Origin: Fibrobacter succinogenes subsp. succinogenes S85
GTDB lineage: Bacteria > Fibrobacterota > Fibrobacteria > Fibrobacterales > Fibrobacteraceae
NCBI RefSeq assembly: GCF_000146505.1
Contig: NC_017448.1
Coordinates: 1,980,001-2,012,000, forward strand
Direction of reading: 5' to 3'
DNA: 32,000 nucleotides
The notes under the pieces were generated by a model. It was not told where the DNA came from. It saw only the letters and a list, made by a program, of their open reading frames with translations, and made no database searches. Of the stretch, positions 2,192 to 27,670 are shown piece by piece (the first letter of the stretch is position 1; the number at the start of each line of letters is the position of its first letter). Made by a program: the position numbers and the translations under genes.

Positions 2192-3367
2192 ATGAACGTT
2201 TTAAATTTTAGTGATAGCATCAAGTTTGTCGGTGTGGATGATCGCGAGATTGATCTTTTTGAAGGGCAGTATAAAGTTCCCGATGGAATTTCTTACAATT
2301 CTTTTGTGATTTTTGATGAAAAGATTGCTGTGACGGACTCGGTCGATGCACACAAAGTATCGGAATGGTTGCAGAATATCGAAAACGCATTGCAGGGCAA
2401 AACGCCCGACTACTTGATTGTCCACCATTTGGAACCCGACCACGCCGGAGGCTTTCTCGAATTTATCAAGAAGTACCCGGACGCAACCATCGCCGCATCT
2501 GCAAAGGCACTTGCGTTCATTCCGCAGTTCGTCAAGCTCCCCGAGGGCACAAAGACGCTCACGCTCAAGGATGGTGACACGCTTTCGCTCGGCAAACACA
2601 CGCTAAAGTTTATCGCGGCCCCGATGGTCCATTGGCCTGAAGTCTTGCTCAGCTATGACGAATCCGAAAAGATTCTGTTCTCCGCCGATGCGTTCGGCAC
2701 ATTCGGACTTTCTGGCAAGCTCGGCGAAGACTGGGTGAGCGAAGCAAGACGTTACTATATCAACATCGTCGGGAAATACGGCATGCAGGTGCAGGGCGTG
2801 TTGAAGAAGCTCGCGGGCATCGAAGTCAAGACGATTTGTCCGTTGCACGGTCCGGTTATTACAGACAATTTAAACTTCTACATTGACAAGTACAACACCT
2901 GGAGCAGCTATGCGCCTGAAACACAAGGCGTATTTGTCGCTTACGCAGGCGTTTACGGCCACACGGCAGAAGCCGCGAAAAAGCTCGCCGAATCGCTCCG
3001 TAAAAAAGGCGTTGACGTGACGATTATGGACTTGGCACGCACGTACTCTTCGGAGACGGTCGCACAGGCATTCCGCTATAGCCATCTCGCCGTATGCGCG
3101 ACAACGCTTGATGCCGGGCTCTTCCCCGCTGCCGAAAAGTTCCTCACGCACATCAAGGCGAAAAACTACAGCAACCGCAAAGTGGGCATTGTCGAAAACG
3201 GCACGTGGGCTCCGATGGCAGCCAAGAAAATGCACGAGATTCTTGACACGCTCAAGAACGTGACATTCTGCGAAACAACGGTCACACTCAAGTCCGCCCT
3301 CGACGAGACTTCTGCCGCAAAACTCGAAGAACTCGCTATAGAATTCGCGAAGGATTTGGGGAAATAG
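2192..3367 (+). CDS. fprA: flavodiiron protein (FprA-family A-type flavoprotein; metallo-beta-lactamase-like domain plus flavodoxin domain)
   Basis: HHLEPDHAGG carries the H-x-E-x-D-H diiron ligand motif. The C-terminal flavodoxin-like segment is GVFVAYAGVYGHTAEAAKKLAESLRKKG. At 391 aa from this start, the length is typical. GGAGG at 2182-2186 sits 5 nt before the ATG at 2192, so the TTG at 2180 in the ORF track is less likely. Confidence 0.85.
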   Translation: MNVLNFSDSIKFVGVDDREIDLFEGQYKVPDGISYNSFVIFDEKIAVTDSVDAHKVSEWLQNIENALQGKTPDYLIVHHLEPDHAGGFLEFIKKYPDATIAASAKALAFIPQFVKLPEGTKTLTLKDGDTLSLGKHTLKFIAAPMVHWPEVLLSYDESEKILFSADAFGTFGLSGKLGEDWVSEARRYYINIVGKYGMQVQGVLKKLAGIEVKTICPLHGPVITDNLNFYIDKYNTWSSYAPETQGVFVAYAGVYGHTAEAAKKLAESLRKKGVDVTIMDLARTYSSETVAQAFRYSHLAVCATTLDAGLFPAAEKFLTHIKAKNYSNRKVGIVENGTWAPMAAKKMHEILDTLKNVTFCETTVTLKSALDETSAAKLEELAIEFAKDLGK

Positions 3368-3399
3368 AACTTAGTTGGCAAAACTTAGAGCTTAGAAAA
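3365..3399 (+). repeat. TAG-heptad element, copy A (TAGAACT TAGTTGG CAAAACT TAGAGCT TAGAAAA). The first TAG is the fprA stop codon.
   Basis: TAG triplets at 3365, 3372, 3386 and 3393 are all in 7-nt register. The stretch 3372-3397 matches 9006-9031 at 25 of 26 positions. Confidence 0.75.
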
Positions 3400-3400
3400 A

Positions 3401-3422
3401 AGTCGGCCTCCGCCGACTTTTT
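3401..3422 (+). terminator. rho-independent terminator of fprA
   Basis: Stem AGTCGGC (3401-3407), loop CTCC, stem GCCGACT (3412-3418), followed by a T-run, with an A-run upstream. Confidence 0.8.
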
Positions 3423-7415: not shown

Positions 7416-9008
7416 ATGGTCGATCCTCTTTATTCCGTGCTAGCTTTTACCTGTGCGTTCGTCTTGCTGATTTTCAAGAATCAGTTTAGAATCGTATTGG
7501 ACAAAAGCGAAAAAACGGACAAGGACTTCTTGTACCTTGCCAACTGGGTGATTGTATTTTGCCTCCAGGACGGTATCTGGGGGATTTTCGGCTGCGGAGC
7601 TATCAAGAACAACTTCCTGCTTTTCCTGTCATCCTCGTTTTTCCATGCGGCAGCCGCTGTCATGGCCTTTATCTGGCTCAACTACATATTGAATTTCATC
7701 AACATCGAGCGCGAAAAGGCTATTCCCGCCAAGATGTTGTCCCTAGCGCTAGTCATATTCCAGCTAGTCCTTCTTTTGATGAATTTCAGGTCAAGTTTTC
7801 TTTTCGGCATCAGCGACGAGGGCACCTACATCGTCATGAACGGGAGAAACCTGCTATATTACAGCCAATATTTCACATTCTTCGTCATTGCAATTTTTCT
7901 GGTTTACAAAACAGCGAGCGCAAAAAAGACAAGCGCCCGCAAACACTATGCCGCAGGGTTCCTGTTTATTTCGGCACCGGTCCTGTGCGGTTTTCTGCAA
8001 AGGGAATTTCCATTTTCTCCGTGTGATTCCATCGGATCCATGCTCGGCTGCTGTACCATCTATGCATTTTTCATCTCGAAAATTAGCCGCAACAGGGACT
8101 TGTCACAAAAGGCGGTCATCATCGCAGGGCTTTCTTCGGACTACGACGTGGTCGTGTACGTCAATATTCCCAAGAACCAAGCCAAGTTCTACCAGATCAG
8201 CGAAAAGTTTACTCCGCTCCTGTGGGAAGGTCGCAATTCCACCAACCCCAAGGATTTTGACAACTTTATGAAGCGCATTTACGTTCCAAACGAATTTAGC
8301 GAATTTATCGAAAAATCAACCATTGACAAGTGCATTGAGCTTTTACAGACGGCCCCCTATTACACCATTCCGTTCCTCGCCAGCGTCAACGGACAGATTG
8401 AGCATTACCGCCTGAAAATCGCAAGCGACAAAAGCAACGCCCAGGGGTTCATTATCGGCATTATCAATGTCGAAGAGGAACATCGTCTAGAAGAAACCGC
8501 ACAACGCTTGAGAAAGGATCTCCAGCATACAAAGCTCATTGCGAACAAAGACCCGCTCACAGGAGTCGGGAGCGCCGCCGCGTTCAAGGCGAAATGCGAA
8601 CTGATTGACAACGAAATCAAGGCCAAGGACAAAATAAAATTCGCGCTTGTAGAATGCGACGTCAACGACCTGAAGGTTATCAACGATACGTTCGGGCACG
8701 ACATGGGCGATGAATATCTCAAGAACTGCAGCAAGGTTTTCTGCAATGTTTTCAGCCACAGCCCGGTTTTCCGCATCGGCGGTGATGAATTTGTCATCAT
8801 CCTTTTCGGCGAACAGTACGAAAAACGCGCAGAACTTTTCGAAAAGCTGAAATCATCAGTGAATCGCAAGCCTGACGCCCCAAAGGAGAGCATTTCGTTT
8901 GCGGCAGGCATGGCGGATTACAGCAGCAAAATTGACGAATGCGTGAAGGACGTGCTCAAGAGAGCCGACACGTTCATGTATATAGACAAGGGTAAACTGA
9001 AAAGCTAG
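7416..9008 (+). CDS. membrane-bound diguanylate cyclase (multi-TM N-terminus, PAS-like sensory module, GGDEF domain)
   Basis: About 6 hydrophobic helices fill the first 220 aa or so. The GGDEF domain reads DPLTGVGSAAAF...DVNDLKVINDTFGHDMGDEYL...FRIGGDEFVIILFG...RADTFMYIDKG, with the GGDEF active-site motif intact. The ATG at 7416 is preferred over the GTG at 7410. Confidence 0.85.
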   Translation: MVDPLYSVLAFTCAFVLLIFKNQFRIVLDKSEKTDKDFLYLANWVIVFCLQDGIWGIFGCGAIKNNFLLFLSSSFFHAAAAVMAFIWLNYILNFINIEREKAIPAKMLSLALVIFQLVLLLMNFRSSFLFGISDEGTYIVMNGRNLLYYSQYFTFFVIAIFLVYKTASAKKTSARKHYAAGFLFISAPVLCGFLQREFPFSPCDSIGSMLGCCTIYAFFISKISRNRDLSQKAVIIAGLSSDYDVVVYVNIPKNQAKFYQISEKFTPLLWEGRNSTNPKDFDNFMKRIYVPNEFSEFIEKSTIDKCIELLQTAPYYTIPFLASVNGQIEHYRLKIASDKSNAQGFIIGIINVEEEHRLEETAQRLRKDLQHTKLIANKDPLTGVGSAAAFKAKCELIDNEIKAKDKIKFALVECDVNDLKVINDTFGHDMGDEYLKNCSKVFCNVFSHSPVFRIGGDEFVIILFGEQYEKRAELFEKLKSSVNRKPDAPKESISFAAGMADYSSKIDECVKDVLKRADTFMYIDKGKLKS

Positions 9009-9042
9009 TTGGCAGAACTTAGAGCTTAGAACTTAGTACTAG
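9006..9042 (+). repeat. TAG-heptad element, copy B (TAGTTGG CAGAACT TAGAGCT TAGAACT TAGTACT AG). The first TAG is the GGDEF gene stop codon.
   Basis: TAG at 9006, 9020, 9027 and 9034 in 7-nt register, plus one at 9040. This is a near-identical copy of 3372-3397. Confidence 0.75.
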
Positions 9043-9089
9043 TCAGTATTTTGTGCAGGGAACTCTCCGCCAACGCGGAGAGAAGACAC

Positions 9090-9122
9090 AAAAAACCCCG
9101 GGTCTTTCGACTCGGGGCTTTT
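9090..9122. terminator. bidirectional intrinsic terminator (tRNA-Ser on the minus strand, GGDEF gene on the plus strand)
   Basis: A6-CCCCGGG-TCTTTCGA-CTCGGGG-CTTTT. On the minus strand the hairpin is followed by TTTTTTG, directly after the tRNA 3' end. A second perfect hairpin, CTCTCCGC-CAAC-GCGGAGAG, lies at 9063-9082. Confidence 0.7.
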
Positions 9123-9125
9123 CAG

Positions 9126-9214
9126 CGGGAAGAGCGAGATTCGAACTCGCGATAGGATTTAGTCCTATACGTCCTTAGCAGGGACGCGCCTTCGGCCAAC
9201 TCGGCCATCTTCCC
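9126..9214 (-). tRNA. tRNA-Ser: tRNA-Ser (anticodon GCU), class II with a long variable arm; CCA is not encoded
   Basis: The minus strand reads GGGAAGA TG GCC GAGTTGGCCGAA GGC G CGTCC CTGCTAA GGACG TATAGGACTAAATCCTATC GCGAG TTCGAAT CTCGC TCTTCCC G. It has a 7-bp acceptor stem, a 5-bp anticodon stem with loop C-T-GCT-A-A, and a T-loop TTCGAAT. Confidence 0.93.
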
Positions 9215-15886: not shown

Positions 15887-16252
15887 CTACACACGCTTTT
15901 TACGGCGTTTCTTTTTTGGCTTGAGGCGTTCGCCAAGACCTGCACGCAGTGCGCCTTCTAATGCAGGATCACCCGCAGCAAGGAGTTCCTTTTGCGGGCG
16001 CTTGAGCTTTTTAATGCGAGCCTCTAGGCGGAGCGCTTCTTCGCGAGTTTCAAGTTCGAATGTTTGTAAAATGCATTCCGGCGGAAACGCTTTGGTAAAT
16101 CTCGCGCCACGCCCACTGCAATGCTCTTCATAGCGGGCGTCGACATCCACGGCGTAGCCCGTGTAAATGCGGTCACCCTTGCAACGGAGCATGTAGACGA
16201 AGTGAGCCTTGGTCATTACCGTATATGGAGATGCCGGCTCGGAGGCCGGCAT
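15887..16252 (-). CDS. GIY-YIG nuclease-superfamily small protein (UPF0213/YhbQ-like) with a Lys/Arg-rich C-terminal tail
   Basis: The core is FVYMLRCKGDRIYTGYAVDVDARYEEHCSGRGARFTKAFPP...ETREEALRLEARIKKL (GIY...YTG, R, E). The tail is KPKKKRRKKRV. The start could be the ATG at 16252 (AGGAA 4 nt upstream) or the ATG at 16216; the TTG at 16300 in the ORF track would overlap nhaA and is unlikely. Confidence 0.75.
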   Translation of the reverse strand: MPASEPASPYTVMTKAHFVYMLRCKGDRIYTGYAVDVDARYEEHCSGRGARFTKAFPPECILQTFELETREEALRLEARIKKLKRPQKELLAAGDPALEGALRAGLGERLKPKKKRRKKRV

Positions 16253-16255
16253 GAC

Positions 16256-16283
16256 ATTCCTAAGTTCTAAACTCCACCAACTA
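16256..16283 (-). repeat. TAG-heptad element, copy C (minus strand: TAGTTGG TGGAGTT TAGAACT TAGGAAT). The first TAG is the nhaA stop codon.
   Basis: It has the same TAGTTGG head and the same TAG spacing (14 then 7 nt) as copies A and B. The last heptad supplies the AGGAA Shine-Dalgarno-like sequence for the ATG at 16252. Confidence 0.7.
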
Positions 16284-17609
16284 TTCTTTCTTAGACACAA
16301 TGCTCATGTAGATGGTACCGAGGATGGCTGCGCTAAAGCTTCCAAGGAGGATACCAAGCTTTGCAGAATCCTTGTTTGCACCGTCTTCAAACGCAAGACC
16401 AGCGACAAAGAGAGCCATCGTAAAACCGATACCGGCAAGCATGCCACCACCCCAAAGGACCTTCCAGGAGTAGCTCGGCTTCTTGGAAACACCAATTTTC
16501 ACAGACAAGAGGCTGAAGAGGAAAATACCAATCGGCTTACCGAAAATGAGGGCAAGAGCCACGGCGCCAAGCACAGGCACGTCAAGACCACCGAGCTTGA
16601 TTTCAACACCGGCATTTGAAAGAGCAAAGAGCGGCATAATACCAAAGTTCACCCACGGCACAAGCGGCTTGTACAAGCGTTCCTGCATCGAGACGCTTTC
16701 ACGGGCGCCACGCTGGAGGAGGCTGAACACGCGATACTTTTCTTCGCCAGAGACCTTAGCATCGCCAGAGAGCACGTTACCCACGCTGTTGGCAAAGCTT
16801 GCAACCTTGCCCTTTGCGACCACGGCCTTAGCCGGCACGGAAAGACCGAGGAGCACGCCAGCAATTGTCGGATGCACACCGGACTTCACGAAGAACGCCC
16901 AAATAGCGATGCCAATCACGCCATGCAAGAGCAAATTGCGCACGCCCACGCGGAACAGCACGTTAATCAAAATGAGGAGCACAAAAGCCGTCCCAAGAGC
17001 AACAAAGTTGATGCCGTCGCCGCTCGGGTAGCCAATCGCAATCACGAGGATTGCACCGATATCGTCCGCAATAGCAAGGGTCAAAATCATCACGCGGAGC
17101 GCATGCGGAACCTTCTTGCCGAGAATCGCCATGCAGCCCACCACAAACGCGATATCCGTCGCCGTCGGGATTCCCCAGCCGTGAGATGTCCCCGCCGGGC
17201 AAAGCGTCAAGTAAATCAGCGCCGGGAAAAGCATACCGCCAGCAGCCGCAATAATCGGGAGACTCGCCGCCTTCGGATCGCGGAGTTCGCCATAAGTCAT
17301 TTCGCCCTTGACCTCAAGCCCGATATTGAAGAAGAATATCGTCATCAACGCATCATTGATGAACCAATGCAAGTCACCAGCGCCCACCCAGCTGCCAATC
17401 GTCACCACGAACGGCAAATGCCAAAAGTGCTCGTACGATGACGGACTCAAGTTCGCCCAGATGAGAGCCGCAAGCGTCATAATGATAAGCACTATGCCGC
17501 CCGTCGTCTCCACCTTCATCAGGCGCTCGATCGGGGTGATGATCTTACGTACCGGGGTTTCCGGAAACATATCTTCAATTTTATCGCTGCTTGTTACTCG
17601 TGCTGACAT
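16281..17609 (-). CDS. nhaA: Na+/H+ antiporter NhaA
   Basis: ETTGGIVLIIMTLAALIWANLSPSSYEHFWH..., the conserved LAIADDIGAI double-Asp motif, about 12 TM segments, 442 aa. Confidence 0.9.
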   Translation of the reverse strand: MSARVTSSDKIEDMFPETPVRKIITPIERLMKVETTGGIVLIIMTLAALIWANLSPSSYEHFWHLPFVVTIGSWVGAGDLHWFINDALMTIFFFNIGLEVKGEMTYGELRDPKAASLPIIAAAGGMLFPALIYLTLCPAGTSHGWGIPTATDIAFVVGCMAILGKKVPHALRVMILTLAIADDIGAILVIAIGYPSGDGINFVALGTAFVLLILINVLFRVGVRNLLLHGVIGIAIWAFFVKSGVHPTIAGVLLGLSVPAKAVVAKGKVASFANSVGNVLSGDAKVSGEEKYRVFSLLQRGARESVSMQERLYKPLVPWVNFGIMPLFALSNAGVEIKLGGLDVPVLGAVALALIFGKPIGIFLFSLLSVKIGVSKKPSYSWKVLWGGGMLAGIGFTMALFVAGLAFEDGANKDSAKLGILLGSFSAAILGTIYMSIVSKKE

Positions 17610-17696: not shown

Positions 17697-20600
17697 TTAC
17701 AAGAACATCGTCAGGACATCCTTCAGTTTTTCAATACTGACCGGTTTTGCGATATGCTCGTTCATGCCCACCTCAAAAGAAGCCCTACAGTCTTCGTCAA
17801 AAGCGTTCGCCGTCATGGCAATAATCGGAATTTCCGCAACGTCCTTGTTCTTTAGGGCTCGAATGCGCTTTGTAGCCTCATAGCCATCCATTACCGGCAT
17901 GCGGACGTCCATCAAAACCACGTCAAACGGTCTCGTTTCCGCCTTAGAAAGCATTTTCACGGCGATATCACCATCTTCTACCGCAGTCACGATAAAGCCG
18001 TTATCCTGGAGGATTTCCATCGCAATTTCACGGTTGAGGATATTGTCTTCGACCAGCAAAATCTTCTTTCCGGCAAATCCGGAGTTGACAACAGCATTGC
18101 TTTCATCATTTTTCTTTGACTGCACAAGCTTAAATTCAAACGTCATCGTCACTTCGGTACCGACATGCAGGCGGCTTGCAATTTCAATCTGGCCGCCCAT
18201 CATTTCGACAGAATTCTTCGTGATGGCAAGTCCAAGGCCCATGCCGCGGACATCTCTCGACACCGTAGATTCCCTTGCAAACGGTTCGTAAACCGTCTTC
18301 AGGAACTCTTCACTCATGCCGATACCGTTATCCTTGATGCGGAACTCGTAGGCAGCATAGCTTGACTTCGTAAGCGGAGTTTCCTTGACGCTCATCGAAA
18401 TGGAACCGCCTTCCTTTGTAAACTTGATGGCATTTGAAAGCACCTTGAGAAGTGCCTGGCGCAAGCGTTCCCTATCGCAGACAACTTCATCATCATTGAT
18501 ATCGACACAATCCAGTTCAAACTTGAGGTCCTTCGCCTGCAAGTCATTGCGGATATCGCGTTCCACCTCATGAACCAATTCAAACAAGTGCATTGGAGCT
18601 TCCTTGAGGTCAAACTTGCCCGATTCAATGCGGCTCATGTCAAGAATGTCGTTGATAATCGAAAGCAGGCGATCGGAGCTCTGGTCAATTTTCACCAAGC
18701 AATCCTTCACGCGTTCCGCATCACCCAAATGCGTCGAGGCAATTGACGTAAGGCCAATGACTGCGTTAAGCGGCGTACGGATTTCATGGCTTATGCTGTT
18801 GAGGAATTCCTTTTTCGCGCTGTTTGCCGCCTGAGCCGCCGAGAGAGCCTGTTTCAAGGCCTCGGCCTGGGTTTCCAGTTGTTCCTTCTGTTCCAGCTGC
18901 AAACGCGTGGATTCGTCAACGCTGATAAAGCCCGCCACAATCTGTTTTTGCGCATCGGCAGCCTTACCCGCAATCACAAACTTGAGCTGCCAATATTCCA
19001 CGGCGCTCCCAATAACCATCCTGTAGTTGACGTAATAAGCATTCTTTTTAGAAAGCTTTTCGTTAACGACTTCACGCGATGTCATTTCAAGGAACATCTT
19101 GCGGTCATCAGGGTGAACAAGCGTATTCGCAATCAACTTCAGGCGGTCTTCAAAATTCCCGACCTTTTTCCAGTTCGGATTATCGGCCCAGTTGTTCTTC
19201 TTCACATAATAAAGATGGTCTTCGCGCGTGGACGGGTTGATGAAGCTCACGAGCGTAAAGTCTTCCGAAAGGCCCTTGATCACTGAAAGTCTTTCACGTT
19301 CTGCTTCGATGGCCACCTTCTCGTCATTCACGTCCTCGACGCCAATAAGCACGTAACCGCCGCCCTTGCCATCGGCAAGGCCAATCAGCGTATGGCGCAG
19401 CCAGACCCAGTTGCCGTTGATAAACCAGCGCATGTCCACAACTTTACGGGATTCATTCGAACCCATCATTTCAAGGAACGCTTCCTTGTTAAACACGCTA
19501 TGGCAAAGTTCCAAATCGTCCTTGTGGATTTTCGTGAGCTCGTCATTGTTCATGATGTCATAGAGCGAAACGTTGCAGTCAAAACGGCTCAGGATTTCCT
19601 TGTACAAGTCGTTCATCGCGCTCGGGTAAACCACATACGACCCCGATTCCGGATTCACGTAATAGATATGGATAAAGTTCTTGGACAGAAGGCCCAAAAG
19701 TTTCATCTGCATATAACGGACCTTGCCCACGTCATCCTGTTGCATGCGATCAGATTCGCCCGCAAAGCTACGGACGGCCACACGGCAAAGCAACACGAAA
19801 TAAGCGCCACAGAACAATAGGACAGCAATTCCAAAGCACAGCAAAATGAAACGGACTTTATGGACAGCCGCCATCGCCACCTTTTCTGGGGACGAAATCA
19901 CGACACTCCAGTGGTTTACTGCCATCGGCTTATAGAAGAAACAGTTTACCTCTTCCCAATAATTTTCAACGCAGGCCCTGCCGGTCTTTCCCGCCAATAT
20001 GCTATCAACAATCGCCGAGAACAGACCATTTTCGTTGTCCATCTCATTCAAGTAGTCACGAATGCCCTTGAGCGAATCGTGCTTCGAATCCGTAATAAAC
20101 CTGCCGTCATCGCGGTTGACGACATACAGAAACATGTTACGGTTGAAACGCTTGTCATTACGCAGATACTGGTGGATGGCCTCCAGGCCAAAGCTCCAGA
20201 ACACAACAGCGACAGTACGCCCATGACTCTTGACAGGCACAAAATGGAACAGGAGCTTTTCTTCCTGCTTATCGCTTTCCAACTTGACCTTCACATGCGA
20301 TTCAAGAGATGATTCCTCCTCATAGGAAAGTCCCATCGGAGATGATGCAGTCACAACGCCATCTGGCATTATAACGGTATCGCCAGGCAAGAGGAGGCTG
20401 ATTTTCTGGTCCCGCAAAAACGGCTGCATATCGTTCAGCTTCGTCTGCAAGCTGTCTGTCGAATAGTCATCACGATCCTTGAGAGCATCCGCCACAAACT
20501 GGAGCGTTCCGCCATAGTGCAGGTTGTTCATGACAAATTCGCTTGACGCCACCTCGGCATTTTCCTGAAGCCTGCTAAAACAGCCATTTTCAACAATTTT

Positions 20601-20723
20601 CAACACCTTCTGGCTGATAAACAAAAAAGCCGCAACCGTCAATACAACGAGAATCACCGCAAAAACAAGGTGATCCCGATGAATCACCTTTTCGCTATGG
20701 ATACCATCAATATTCTTTATCAT
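17697..20723 (-). CDS. hybrid sensor histidine kinase/response regulator: two TM segments flanking an extracytoplasmic sensor domain, two PAS-like modules, HisKA, HATPase_c and REC
   Basis: TM segments at about aa 20-40 and 290-315. H-box SHEIRTPLNAV. HATPase G-boxes DNGIGM and GMGLGLAI. REC domain KKILLVEDNILNREI...DVVLMDVRMPVMDG...IIAMTANAF. Confidence 0.9.
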   Translation of the reverse strand: MIKNIDGIHSEKVIHRDHLVFAVILVVLTVAAFLFISQKVLKIVENGCFSRLQENAEVASSEFVMNNLHYGGTLQFVADALKDRDDYSTDSLQTKLNDMQPFLRDQKISLLLPGDTVIMPDGVVTASSPMGLSYEEESSLESHVKVKLESDKQEEKLLFHFVPVKSHGRTVAVVFWSFGLEAIHQYLRNDKRFNRNMFLYVVNRDDGRFITDSKHDSLKGIRDYLNEMDNENGLFSAIVDSILAGKTGRACVENYWEEVNCFFYKPMAVNHWSVVISSPEKVAMAAVHKVRFILLCFGIAVLLFCGAYFVLLCRVAVRSFAGESDRMQQDDVGKVRYMQMKLLGLLSKNFIHIYYVNPESGSYVVYPSAMNDLYKEILSRFDCNVSLYDIMNNDELTKIHKDDLELCHSVFNKEAFLEMMGSNESRKVVDMRWFINGNWVWLRHTLIGLADGKGGGYVLIGVEDVNDEKVAIEAERERLSVIKGLSEDFTLVSFINPSTREDHLYYVKKNNWADNPNWKKVGNFEDRLKLIANTLVHPDDRKMFLEMTSREVVNEKLSKKNAYYVNYRMVIGSAVEYWQLKFVIAGKAADAQKQIVAGFISVDESTRLQLEQKEQLETQAEALKQALSAAQAANSAKKEFLNSISHEIRTPLNAVIGLTSIASTHLGDAERVKDCLVKIDQSSDRLLSIINDILDMSRIESGKFDLKEAPMHLFELVHEVERDIRNDLQAKDLKFELDCVDINDDEVVCDRERLRQALLKVLSNAIKFTKEGGSISMSVKETPLTKSSYAAYEFRIKDNGIGMSEEFLKTVYEPFARESTVSRDVRGMGLGLAITKNSVEMMGGQIEIASRLHVGTEVTMTFEFKLVQSKKNDESNAVVNSGFAGKKILLVEDNILNREIAMEILQDNGFIVTAVEDGDIAVKMLSKAETRPFDVVLMDVRMPVMDGYEATKRIRALKNKDVAEIPIIAMTANAFDEDCRASFEVGMNEHIAKPVSIEKLKDVLTMFL

Positions 20724-26054: not shown

Positions 26055-27479
26055 TTACTTGGACTTCTTGCAGCCCTTCTTGCAAGCAGCCTTGGCCGGG
26101 GCCTTAGCAGCCTTGCAGTTCTTGCGCGGATCGCCAGCGTAGACAGCAGCCTTGCCGAGTTCTTCTTCGATGCGGAGGAGGCGGTTGTACTTGCAGACGC
26201 GGTCCGTACGAGAGAGGGAACCAGTCTTGATCTGGCCAGCGGCAGTACCGACGGCGAGGTCAGCAATGAAGGTGTCTTCGGTTTCGCCAGAACGGTGAGA
26301 AACGATCGGAGCATAGCCTTCAACCTGAGCGCGCTTGATAGCAGCGAGGGTTTCAGAAACAGAACCGACCTGGTTCACCTTGATGAGGATAGCGTTAGCG
26401 ATGCCAGCCTTGATGCCTTCGTCGAAGATGGTCGGGTTCGTAACGAACAGGTCGTCACCCACGAGGTTGATCTTGCCACCGAGCTTGTCGGTAAGAACCT
26501 TCCAACCTGCCCAGTCAGCTTCATCGAGACCGTCTTCAATGGAGAAGATGGAGTACTTGTCGATGAGCTTTTCATAGAGCTTGACCATGTCAGCAGACTT
26601 GACAGTCTTCTTGGTGCTCTTCTTGAACGTGTAGGTAACAGCCTTGGAGCCTTCCTTTTCAGTTTCCTTGTCGCAGAATTCGGAAGAAGCAACGTCAAGA
26701 GCGATCTTGATGTCCTTGCCGAAAACGTAACCAGCGTTTTCAGTAGCGGTCTTCAAAGCAGCGAGAGCCTTTTCGAGGGTCATCACGTCCTTGATTTCGT
26801 AACCGAACTTGTTCTTAGCCGGCTTGATAGCAACGCCCGGAGCAAAGCCACCTTCGTCACCAACCGTCGTATCGAAACCACCCTTCTTGAGGACAGCCTT
26901 AAGAGCGTGGAAGATTTCGGTCACCATCTGGAGACCCTTGGAGAAAGTCTTAGCGCCAACCGGAGCGATCATGAATTCCTGGAAGTCGATCGGAGCGGAA
27001 GAGTGAGCACCACCGTTGATCACGTTGCACATCGGGCACGGGAGGGTGAGCTTTTCAGTGCCATGGAGCTTAGCAATGTACTGGTAAAGCGGAAGGCCAG
27101 CATCCTTAGCAGCAGCAACGCAAACAGCCATGGAAACGCCGAGGATAGCGTTTGCACCGAGCGTGTTCTTGAGCATGCGGTTGCCGTCGAGTTCGATCAT
27201 AGCGTCATCAACTTCAGTCTGCTTGGACGGATCCATGCCAACGATCTTCTTAGCGATCTTGGTGTTGACGTTCTTCACGGCAGTGAGAGTGCCCTTGCCG
27301 AGATAGGTCTTCTTGTCGCCGTCGCGGAGTTCGCAAGCTTCGCGTTCACCGGTGGAAGCACCACTCGGAACAGCTGCGTGACCAACGATACCGTTGTCAA
27401 GAGTGACATCGACTTCGAGAGACGGATTGCCACGGGAATCCAAAATCTGACGAGCCCAAACTTTAGCGATTTTAGCCAT
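26055..27479 (-). CDS. eno: enolase (phosphopyruvate hydratase) with short insertions and a Lys/Cys-rich C-terminal extension
   Basis: [25 protein letters not shown]...[10 protein letters not shown]...[49 protein letters not shown]. At 474 aa it is longer than usual. Confidence 0.95.
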
Positions 27480-27583
27480 TTTATTAACCTTCTGTTAAAG
27501 TGAAAATTTTTTGTGCTTTAAATATAAAAAAGTAGGAAGTTTGCAGTAGACAGTAAGAAGAAAAAATGTGAAGATTTCGTTGT

Positions 27584-27625
27584 TAGCGATTAGTCATTGG
27601 TCATTAGTTGTTAGTCATTAGTTAA
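27584..27625 (+). repeat. six-unit heptad tandem array TAGCGAT TAGTCAT TGGTCAT TAGTTGT TAGTCAT TAGTTAA
   Basis: Exact 7-nt periodicity, read directly from the sequence. The unit TAGTTGT matches the TAGTTGG head of elements A-C at 6 of 7 positions. It lies on the strand opposite both flanking genes. Confidence 0.75.
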
Positions 27626-27670
27626 TGTTTCTTCGTCATCCTGACGACCAAAGGAAGGATCCAGTGATTT

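Follow-up and report, generated by a model that had tools for sequence, protein, structure and literature searches.

TAG-bearing heptamer arrays at gene ends of Fibrobacter succinogenes S85 as probable members of a dispersed intergenic repeat family

In a 32,000-nucleotide stretch of the Fibrobacter succinogenes subsp. succinogenes S85 genome (NC_017448.1, positions 1,980,001 to 2,012,000 of the forward strand; hereafter the window), three genes are followed by a short element in which TAG triplets recur in seven-nucleotide steps. We find that these three copies are probably members of a dispersed, fast-evolving family of intergenic heptanucleotide repeats that is common in Fibrobacter genomes, a reading to which we give a probability of roughly 0.58. 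An initial annotation of the window had described the element as TAGTTGG-N7-TAG-N4-TAG anchored at stop codons on the coding strand, and had proposed a HutP- or TRAP-like RNA-binding site as one explanation. Our analysis supports that account in part: the recurrence, the stop anchoring and the strand bias hold, and the HutP/TRAP-like site does not. The three copies are as follows.

Copy A, 3365–3399, plus strand: TAGAACT TAGTTGG CAAAACT TAGAGCT TAGAAAA; the TAG at 3365–3367 is the stop codon of an fprA-like gene (2192–3367).
Copy B, 9006–9042, plus strand: TAGTTGG CAGAACT TAGAGCT TAGAACT TAGTACT AG; the TAG at 9006–9008 is the stop codon of a GGDEF gene (7416–9008).
Copy C, 16283–16256, minus strand: TAGTTGG TGGAGTT TAGAACT TAGGAAT; the TAG at 16283–16281 is the stop codon of nhaA (16281–17609, minus strand).

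All three copies were found where they had been placed and with the sequences that had been described, each on the coding strand of a long open reading frame (ORF), these ORFs ending at 3367, 9008 and 16281. Pfam matches identify the gene products as an FprA-type flavoprotein (Lactamase_B, ODP and flavodoxin), a GGDEF protein and NhaA (Na_H_antiport_1). The first TAG is itself the stop codon in copies B and C, and in copy A the stop lies one heptad 5' of TAGTTGG; copies A and B are identical at 25 of 26 positions over TAGTTGGCARAACTTAGAGCTTAGAA. The composite TAGTTGG-N7-TAG-N4-TAG matched three times in the window, compared with 0.00 in 100 shuffles, TAGAACTTAG with at most one mismatch matched seven times against 0.82 expected, and TAG-N4-TAG-N4-TAG matched twice against 0.05 expected. 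TAGTTGG alone was not enriched in the window (3 found, 2.1 expected). Six of the seven TAG-N4-TAG pairs fall in the approximately 7.5% of the window that is intergenic, and the seventh lies inside a tRNA. The arrays have no inverted repeat, as the initial annotation held, and no structure: their minimum free energies are −1.2 to −3.4 kcal/mol, and shuffled sequences fold at least as well (z from +0.3 to +1.4, the highest value being that of copy B). An Rfam scan of the window at the gathering threshold matched only a tRNA-Ser, leaving the arrays without a family.

The copies belong to a much larger set. A single motif scan of 185,579 species-representative genomes with the pattern TAGTTGG-N6-TTAGANCTTAG returned 119 loci, 87 of them from Fibrobacter, Hallerella or Fibrobacterales metagenome-assembled genomes (MAGs), with as many as 18 in one MAG. 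Scanning viral contigs with the motif gave no match, and among the papers searched we found none containing the Fibrobacter array strings and nothing relevant on Fibrobacter repeats. Period and placement were counted in 661 kb of Fibrobacter DNA taken from loci, most of them selected through the motif. This DNA holds 108 tandem arrays of period 7, compared with 0–5 for each of periods 5, 6 and 8–12, and the arrays are intergenic in 103 of these 108 cases and in 137 of 139 TAG arrays. The commonest units are TAGAACT (99), TAGAGCT (67), TAGTTGG (38), TAGTTAC (21), TAGGGAT (16) and TAGGAAG (13), followed by others, and a T precedes 60% of the TAGs, which places CTAA on the opposite strand. The family consensus is (TAGARCT)0-1 TAGTTGG YAGARCT TAGARCT TAG..., usually with four or five units and with a range of 3 to 9.

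Conservation within the units indicates how the arrays are related. Within unit 2, whose bases the search pattern did not fix, AGA.C is 95–100% conserved; the triplet opens with C in 45%, T in 39% and G in 12% of copies, and the unit's fifth base is A in 73% and G in 24%. The AG of each triplet is near-invariant wherever the search left it free (98–99%). Because the whole unit is conserved, including its spacer, the arrays form a copied sequence family rather than a TAG-N4 code. Identical 31-mers were found at up to 10 loci, and variants of the head (the TAGTTGG end) are genome-specific, with 14 T and 4 C in one MAG versus 2 T and 10 C in another (Fisher p = 0.002). Identical multi-unit strings at unrelated loci, together with genome-specific variants, show that the arrays have been copied between sites. 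The same intergenic mosaics also contain stop-free heptamer families (AGACGAG/GACGAAA and AATTCCG; for example at L008, L033, L051, L083, L092, L117 and L123), and a few of these arrays fall inside predicted ORFs.

Orthologous sites show that the arrays turn over quickly. At fprA, the array is absent in 95%-identical orthologues (L126, L127) and in more distant syntenic relatives (L206, L213–L217); L206 and L213–L215 retain the same terminator and have palindromes of the GGAGATGCC...GGCATGAC type in the slot before it, and the stop is TAA or TAG TAG. At the GGDEF gene, S85 and L206/L207 share an identical array that is absent in L210 and L213–L218. The empty site in L216–L218 consists of TAA, 2 nt and then the terminator adjoining tRNA-Ser, whereas the slot is taken up by 53 nt of other sequence in L213–L215 and by TAG and a palindrome in L210 (88% identity). 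At nhaA, the array has four units in S85 and L206 and five in L216 and L040, and the stop in L213/L214 is occupied by a different TAG-heptad array, TAGGATT TAGGAGT TAGGGAA. L208 and L209 likewise differ by one unit (4 versus 5) at another gene. On conservation at orthologous gene ends, a point raised with the initial annotation, copies A and B are missing in orthologues of 75–95% identity, and TAG heptads persist at the nhaA stop (copy C). Arrays gain or lose whole units of 7 nt, the pattern expected from slipped-strand mispairing. These steps and the filled, empty and palindrome-bearing alleles mark the slot between stop and terminator as a hot spot of gain, loss and exchange.

Placement relative to genes follows a rule that is broader than stop anchoring. 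Relative to the TAG strand, the flanking genes are oriented +/+ in 38 cases, −/− in 26, −/+ in 25 and +/− in 19, and the presence of arrays in all four arrangements means that they are not specific to 3' ends. They are, however, polar with respect to genes: the 5' (TAG, G-rich) end of the TAG strand abuts the gene boundary. Of the arrays whose TAG strand is sense, 44 of 67 have an upstream stop no more than 30 nt away, compared with 6 of 51 whose CTAA strand is sense (Mann-Whitney p = 3e-7). Conversely, a predicted start follows within 30 nt downstream of 25 of 56 CTAA-sense arrays and of 5 of 73 TAG-sense arrays (Mann-Whitney p = 9e-11); these starts are those of the longest ORFs, which makes the distances approximate and leaves the asymmetry between orientations unaffected. 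The polarity is also present in intergenic regions that were not selected by motif (stops, 12/15 versus 2/19; starts, 12/21 versus 2/15). When two arrays occupy one region, they are arranged head-out in 14 pairs and head-in in 2. At loci retrieved through proteins (L206, L208, L213, L216), all seven arrays are TAG-sense and lie no more than 21 nt from a stop, most of them beginning at it.

The stop anchoring and same-strand bias described for the window therefore extend beyond it, both among the 67 and 51 arrays counted above and, independently of the motif, in the seven protein-retrieved arrays, and they are one half of a general polarity rule. The three window copies are not a special 3'-end signal. 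A TAG of the array serves as the stop codon in 23 cases, with the first, second and third TAG used in a ratio of 15:5:3, and some proteins have C-terminal tails encoded by an array (ending in NLELRA, ELRT or VTSY), which indicates that ORFs simply run into the arrays. We set aside a replication-oriented (KOPS-like) or promoter reading because orientation tracks the neighbouring gene boundary and not one strand. We also dropped a mini-ORF (TTG GCA GAA CTT AGA GCT TAG) or read-through peptide, given that copy A is in another frame and that arrays occur in both orientations.

The same rule has been described for other heptamers. Rehm et al. (2015; PMC4692102) reported GGGAATC and GGGGA(C/T)T heptamers in Xanthomonas and Nostoc that prefer four units, are biased towards intergenic DNA and have their G-rich strand either sense within 50 bp past stops, including overlap with the stop, or antisense within 50 bp upstream of ORFs; repeat length varied between close relatives, and no function was found. 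The Fibrobacter arrays are alike in their period of 7, in having about four units, in intergenic location and in unit-number variation, and their polarity is the same rule. Since the published rule covers stop-free heptamers (PMC4692102), the polarity is tied to heptamer arrays as such, not to TAG. The differences lie in the units, which have another sequence and lack the G3 tracts and hence G-quadruplexes, and most of which carry TAG (CTAA on the opposite strand) and so supply stops, whereas the Xanthomonas and Nostoc units are stop-free. Arrays between divergent genes (25 cases) are also not obviously depleted in Fibrobacter, unlike in Xanthomonas and Nostoc.

A second parallel is provided by the intergenic TAACTGA heptamers of marine Beggiatoaceae and some Cyanobacteria and Bacteroidetes (MacGregor 2015; PMC4679880). 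These occur in sets of 2–6 copies with other heptamers mixed in, provide stops in all frames of one orientation, can overlap ORF ends by no more than a few codons, are patchily distributed across phyla and in many cases lie directly upstream of starts; binding by S1, Csp or CsrA was proposed and not tested there. Their start-proximal placement matches that of the CTAA-sense arrays in Fibrobacter and Peribacteria. The units differ, however, and most sets in the Beggiatoaceae genome stand upstream of starts in the stop-containing orientation, whereas the commonest position of the Fibrobacter arrays is the stop codon and their start-proximal arrays have the complementary orientation.

Dispersed intergenic heptanucleotide tandem repeats were described earlier as cyanobacterial STRR (Mazel et al. 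1990) and as the long simple sequence repeats, LSSR, of prokaryotes (Mrazek et al. 2007), and heptamers were reported to be the most abundant long simple repeats, with polymerase slippage as their source (Mrazek et al. 2007), in both cases as these works are represented in PMC4679880 and PMC4692102. A cyanobacterial match to our motif, L010, sits in such heptamer arrays. With a period of 7, dispersed non-coding copies, unit-length polymorphism and the placement rule of Rehm et al., the Fibrobacter arrays have the characters of heptameric LSSR/STRR and are a new member of this known class of heptameric intergenic repeats. They differ from the earlier examples in being short and imperfect and in having a defined non-periodic head (TAGTTGG) and unit order; in this respect their behaviour is closer to that of a dispersed repeat element than to that of a pure microsatellite.

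Such a family might come to lie at stop codons in the following way. Slippage would alter unit number, and a copy-and-paste process, possibly acting together with the GTCAT palindromes described below, would spread the arrays. As nearly every unit carries a TAG, an ORF abutting an array would end within it; loss of spacer DNA that has no use, combined with selection against C-terminal tails encoded by the array, could then leave the first in-frame TAG as the stop. The apparent stop anchoring would thus be a product of TAGs in all frames, spacer deletion and counter-selection of tails. In the mRNA, the array would form an unstructured 28–37 nt between the stop codon and the downstream hairpin. 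In our judgement, the arrays probably serve no regulatory role of their own and act at most as generic spacers. The last alternative offered in the initial annotation, a target or relic of a small mobile repeat, comes closest to the data.

Several observations weigh against a repeat family of this kind as the whole explanation. The first TAG serves as the stop in excess of the expectation for a random reading frame, as the 15:5:3 ratio indicates, and nearly every array at the motif-independent loci starts at the stop; this pattern would need targeted insertion, selection for compactness or a stop-adjacent function. The nhaA stop retains TAG heptads made of unrelated units, so the period-7 TAG feature itself could be maintained. 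Neutral drift alone does not readily account for the units shared with Peribacteria, SR1 and others at gene boundaries. Neither a transposase nor a RAYT was linked to the arrays, with no genome-wide transposase search having been made. In addition, all genes in relatives were called from ORFs, and the majority of loci came from the motif scan. The excess of first TAGs, the persistence of heptads at nhaA and the vocabulary shared across phyla keep functional readings alive.

One such reading is that the arrays are cis sites for an oligomeric or cooperative single-strand-binding protein (HutP- or TRAP-like, a cold-shock protein, S1 or an unidentified factor), which would read NAG triplets every 7 nt, mark gene boundaries and affect termination, re-initiation or mRNA stability. 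Its attractions are the strict period and near-invariant AG, the accessibility of unstructured arrays, their orientation-dependent placement at stops and starts, the retention of TAG heptads at the nhaA stop with spacers that differ by lineage, the recurrence of units at gene boundaries in Peribacteria and SR1, and the S1, Csp or CsrA binding put forward for the analogous TAACTGA repeats. Yet the spacer bases are as conserved as the triplet, as expected of common descent and not of a TAG-N4 code; copies A and B have been gained or lost between close relatives with no sign of compensation; and either strand can be sense depending on context, so that one RNA-binding protein cannot read all arrays. 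We consider this reading unlikely.

The specific proposal of a docking site for a HutP-like protein is unsupported. In the Bacillus subtilis hut leader, the HutP site comprises two sets of three UAG triplets, each separated by 4 nt, in the 5' leader and overlapping the regulated terminator of the hut operon, and to our knowledge HutP is known from Bacillales only. The TRAP (MtrB) site has 9–11 (G/U)AG triplets spaced 2–3 nt apart. The initial annotation had equated three UAG-N4 units with the HutP site, and this likeness is present in copy B (UAG-N4-UAG-N4-UAG, 9020–9036), the only copy with three consecutive TAG-N4 units; it does not extend to copies A and C, which have at most two consecutive UAGs. 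Copy B itself differs from a HutP site in being a single set that lies 3' of a stop and not in a 5' leader, with no hut genes in the window, and arrays also occur in the antisense orientation. The 4-nt spacing and 3–5 triplets of the window copies do not fit TRAP either. A HutP- or TRAP-like site in 3' untranslated regions (UTRs) is also made less likely by the opposite-orientation arrays just upstream of starts, by the occurrence of arrays in every gene arrangement, 25 of them between divergent genes, by the absence of copies A and B from orthologues, by the variable unit number and by the conserved spacers. No candidate protein was identified, and the genome was not searched for HutP or TRAP homologues.

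Alternatively, the arrays could be translational punctuation: cassettes with stops in several frames (TAG on one strand and, through TTAG, TAA on the opposite one), favoured by selection because they would halt ribosomes that have read through or shifted frame before these reach the terminator hairpin or the following cistron. Three consecutive heptads place TAG in all three frames, the T before most TAGs yields CTAA on the other strand, and a stop triplet is present on at least one strand in 92 of the 108 period-7 arrays and on both in 71, compared with about 49% and 8% by rough arithmetic for random heptamers. The arrays abut stop and start codons, and in each window copy an in-frame TAG follows 7 codons past the stop. 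Stops in all three frames are, however, found in copy B only; in each of copies A and C, one frame stays without a stop on both strands, which weakens the multi-frame stop buffer suggested in the initial annotation. In 57% of copies the unit-2 triplet begins with C or G, stop-free families (AGACGAG, AATTCCG) exist in the same genomes, the stop-free heptamers of Xanthomonas and Nostoc obey the same placement rule (PMC4692102), and close relatives do without the arrays. A survey of bacteria reports no evidence that additional stops are favoured as a fail-safe (Ho and Hurst 2019; PMC6764699). We therefore regard selection for stop cassettes as very improbable.

A GC-rich hairpin lies 3' of each of copies A, B and C, and the window contains a fourth heptad array that the initial annotation did not list. 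These features are given below.

Intrinsic terminator, 3402–3422, plus strand: GTCGGC-CTCC-GCCGAC followed by a T run, directly 3' of copy A.
Hairpin, 9063–9082, 3' of copy B: CTCTCCGC-CAAC-GCGGAGAG.
Terminator hairpin with A- and T-flanks, 9096–9118, between the GGDEF gene and the convergent tRNA-Ser (9125–9214, minus strand).
REP-like palindrome, 16227–16255, minus strand: GTCATGCCGGC-CTCCGA-GCCGGCATCTCC, abutting the tail of copy C.
Fourth heptad array, 27579–27625, plus strand: TTAGCGA TTAGTCA TTGGTCA TTAGTTG TTAGTCA TTAG.
Second REP-like element, 27635–27668, plus strand: GTCATCCTGA...GGATCCAGTGAT, adjoining the fourth array.

The terminator 3' of copy A is retained in relatives that lack the array. 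The fourth array lies approximately 100 nt upstream of the enolase gene (26055–27479, minus strand), and its minus strand, which is sense for both flanking genes, consists of TAATGAC/TAACAAC units; TRF called period 7 at 9014–9040 and 27589–27622. No arrays were found in the 16 kb of S85 DNA flanking the window, and the array density in S85 is thus modest (4 loci in 48 kb). The palindrome at 16227–16255 belongs to a GTCAT...palindrome family (GTCATGCC-stem-loop-GGCATCTCC) that is frequent 3' of array tails: GTCAT occurs within 20 nt past the tail in 23 of 162 arrays, compared with a background of 1.8%, and the other three orientation combinations are at background. Members of this family, in this or the other orientation (GGAGATGCC...GGCATGAC), fill the slots between stop and terminator after fprA and GGDEF orthologues in other strains (L126, L206, L210, L213–L217). 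More generally, intergenic regions are mosaics of several heptamer families and of the palindrome families GTCATCCTGA...GGATCCAGTGA and GTCATGCC...GGCATCTCC, and the GTCATCCTGA family recurs beside arrays in many Fibrobacter MAGs. The GTCAT elements do fold and are units separate from the non-folding arrays. The idea that arrays serve as spacers before unusually strong hairpins was rejected, as the 70 nt past arrays had a median of −16.0 kcal/mol versus −13.9 kcal/mol past ordinary stops (p = 0.54).

Conceivably, a MITE- or REPIN-like element, mobile but non-autonomous, inserts beside gene ends and the arrays are its arms or pieces of it, solo arrays such as copies A, B and C being half-elements. 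Such an element would fit the excess of head-out pairs, the fixed-orientation link to the GTCAT palindromes, the filled, empty and alternative alleles at orthologous slots and the genome-specific variants. It would also fit a palindromic dispersed repeat of approximately 120–130 nt, in which a TAG-array arm (TCAGAGCTTAGTTGGGAGAACTTAGAGCTTAGAA) and a CTAA-array arm surround a conserved core, found at L026, L027, L029, L034, L037, L043, L049, L052, L053, L057, L066, L090, L093, L094, L099, L109, L118, L124 and L125, in Hallerella and Fibrobacter MAGs and in the otherwise labelled assemblies named below. Like the REP, BIME and REPIN sequences of proteobacteria, the arrays are abundant, intergenic and often past stops, occur as singlets and inverted pairs, have genome-specific variants, are rapidly gained and lost, and share mosaics with true palindromic GTCAT units; unlike REP and REPIN, they are tandem heptads, are not palindromes and form no stable hairpin.

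Against such an element, no more than 13 of 139 arrays have an inverted 11-mer partner within 200 nt, and none of the window copies does, for which reason a hairpin-partner idea was also rejected. The window copies have no recognisable terminal inverted repeats, and comparing filled with empty sites defined no target-site duplication. No transposase or RAYT gene was found, within the limit on transposase searching given above, the viral contigs gave no match, and changes in 7-nt steps typify satellites, not MITEs. We consider an inserting element of this type improbable, and it overlaps the dispersed heptamer family, which we prefer, in the way the arrays would spread. As a separate observation, the 120–130-nt repeat also occurs in 'cleanbin' assemblies labelled Methanomethylophilaceae, Sodaliphilus and Eggerthellaceae, labels that look doubtful because the assemblies carry this repeat.

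Units of the arrays also appear far outside Fibrobacterota, in MAGs labelled Peribacteria (8 loci in 4 MAGs: L012, L035, L056, L060, L062, L069, L073 and L077), SR1 (L018, L089), Kapaibacteriota, Iainarchaeum and others, the distant loci further including L032 and L080. Fibrobacterota share TAGTTGG, TAGAACT and TAGAGCT with Peribacteria and SR1. Mis-binned Fibrobacter contigs were rejected as the source of the distant loci: GC content is 0.37–0.42 at the Peribacteria loci and 0.37–0.40 at the SR1 loci, compared with 0.50 in Fibrobacter (Kapaibacteriota, 0.61; Iainarchaeum, 0.54), and blastn similarity to Fibrobacter DNA consists mostly of the 32–47-nt arrays, with weak matches over conserved genes (enolase). 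Of 14 Peribacteria arrays, 11 have their head no more than 8 nt from a gene boundary, often 1–6 nt upstream of an ATG on the opposite strand. At the distant loci as a whole, arrays are mostly 1–8 nt away from a gene boundary, and often immediately 5' of an ATG on the opposite strand, in the position of a ribosome-binding site.

A bolder interpretation is that TAG-phased arrays are gene-boundary punctuation in which a conserved single-strand-binding factor reads NAG every 7 nt, with a vocabulary perhaps derived from or mimicking the tRNA D-arm. If this were true, UAG arrays would open 3' UTRs and complementary CUAA arrays would close 5' UTRs, tuning termination, re-initiation or the stability of mRNA ends. 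We think it improbable. We noted that GCTTAGTTGGTAGAGC, from arrays with TAGAGCT TAGTTGG TAGAGCT (for example L019, L031 and L044), is identical at 15 of 16 positions to the D-arm GCTCAGTTGGTAGAGC of Fibrobacter tRNA-Lys(CTT) and tRNA-Phe, with a rough post-hoc chance estimate of approximately 0.002; the window copies TTGGCAGAAC and TTGGTGGAGT are less D-arm-like.

Two further observations concern the window and its genes. The window is 99.98% identical to CP001792.1 (~1,533,285–1,565,284), with a few substitutions and one indel. The differences lie near window position ~8475, in the GGDEF gene, and at ~17789–18003, in a histidine kinase gene (17697–20723); both ORFs are unbroken in the window and split in the CP001792.1 gene calls (353 + 166 and 918 + 97 amino acids), which suggests frameshift or sequencing differences between S85 assemblies. 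TAG is also an unusually frequent stop codon, ending 9 of 21 window genes and, among 791 genes called as ORFs in Fibrobacter loci, 29% (TAA, 50%; TGA, 21%), and only a minority of these TAG stops belong to arrays.

Among the long simple repeats of prokaryotes, heptameric intergenic repeats form the commonest class, and what they do has been a question ever since the first reports of cyanobacterial STRRs. The arrays analysed here add a cultivable, well-studied rumen bacterium, F. succinogenes S85, with a well-defined family located exactly at stop codons, and the natural filled, empty and alternative alleles at the same sites offer an experimentally tractable case of the gene-boundary rule. For genome annotation, the arrays supply stops, can add short protein tails and are hot spots for assembly and indel differences. 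The placement rule has now been seen in three unrelated phyla, with units that do or do not contain stops, and this points to a general cause.

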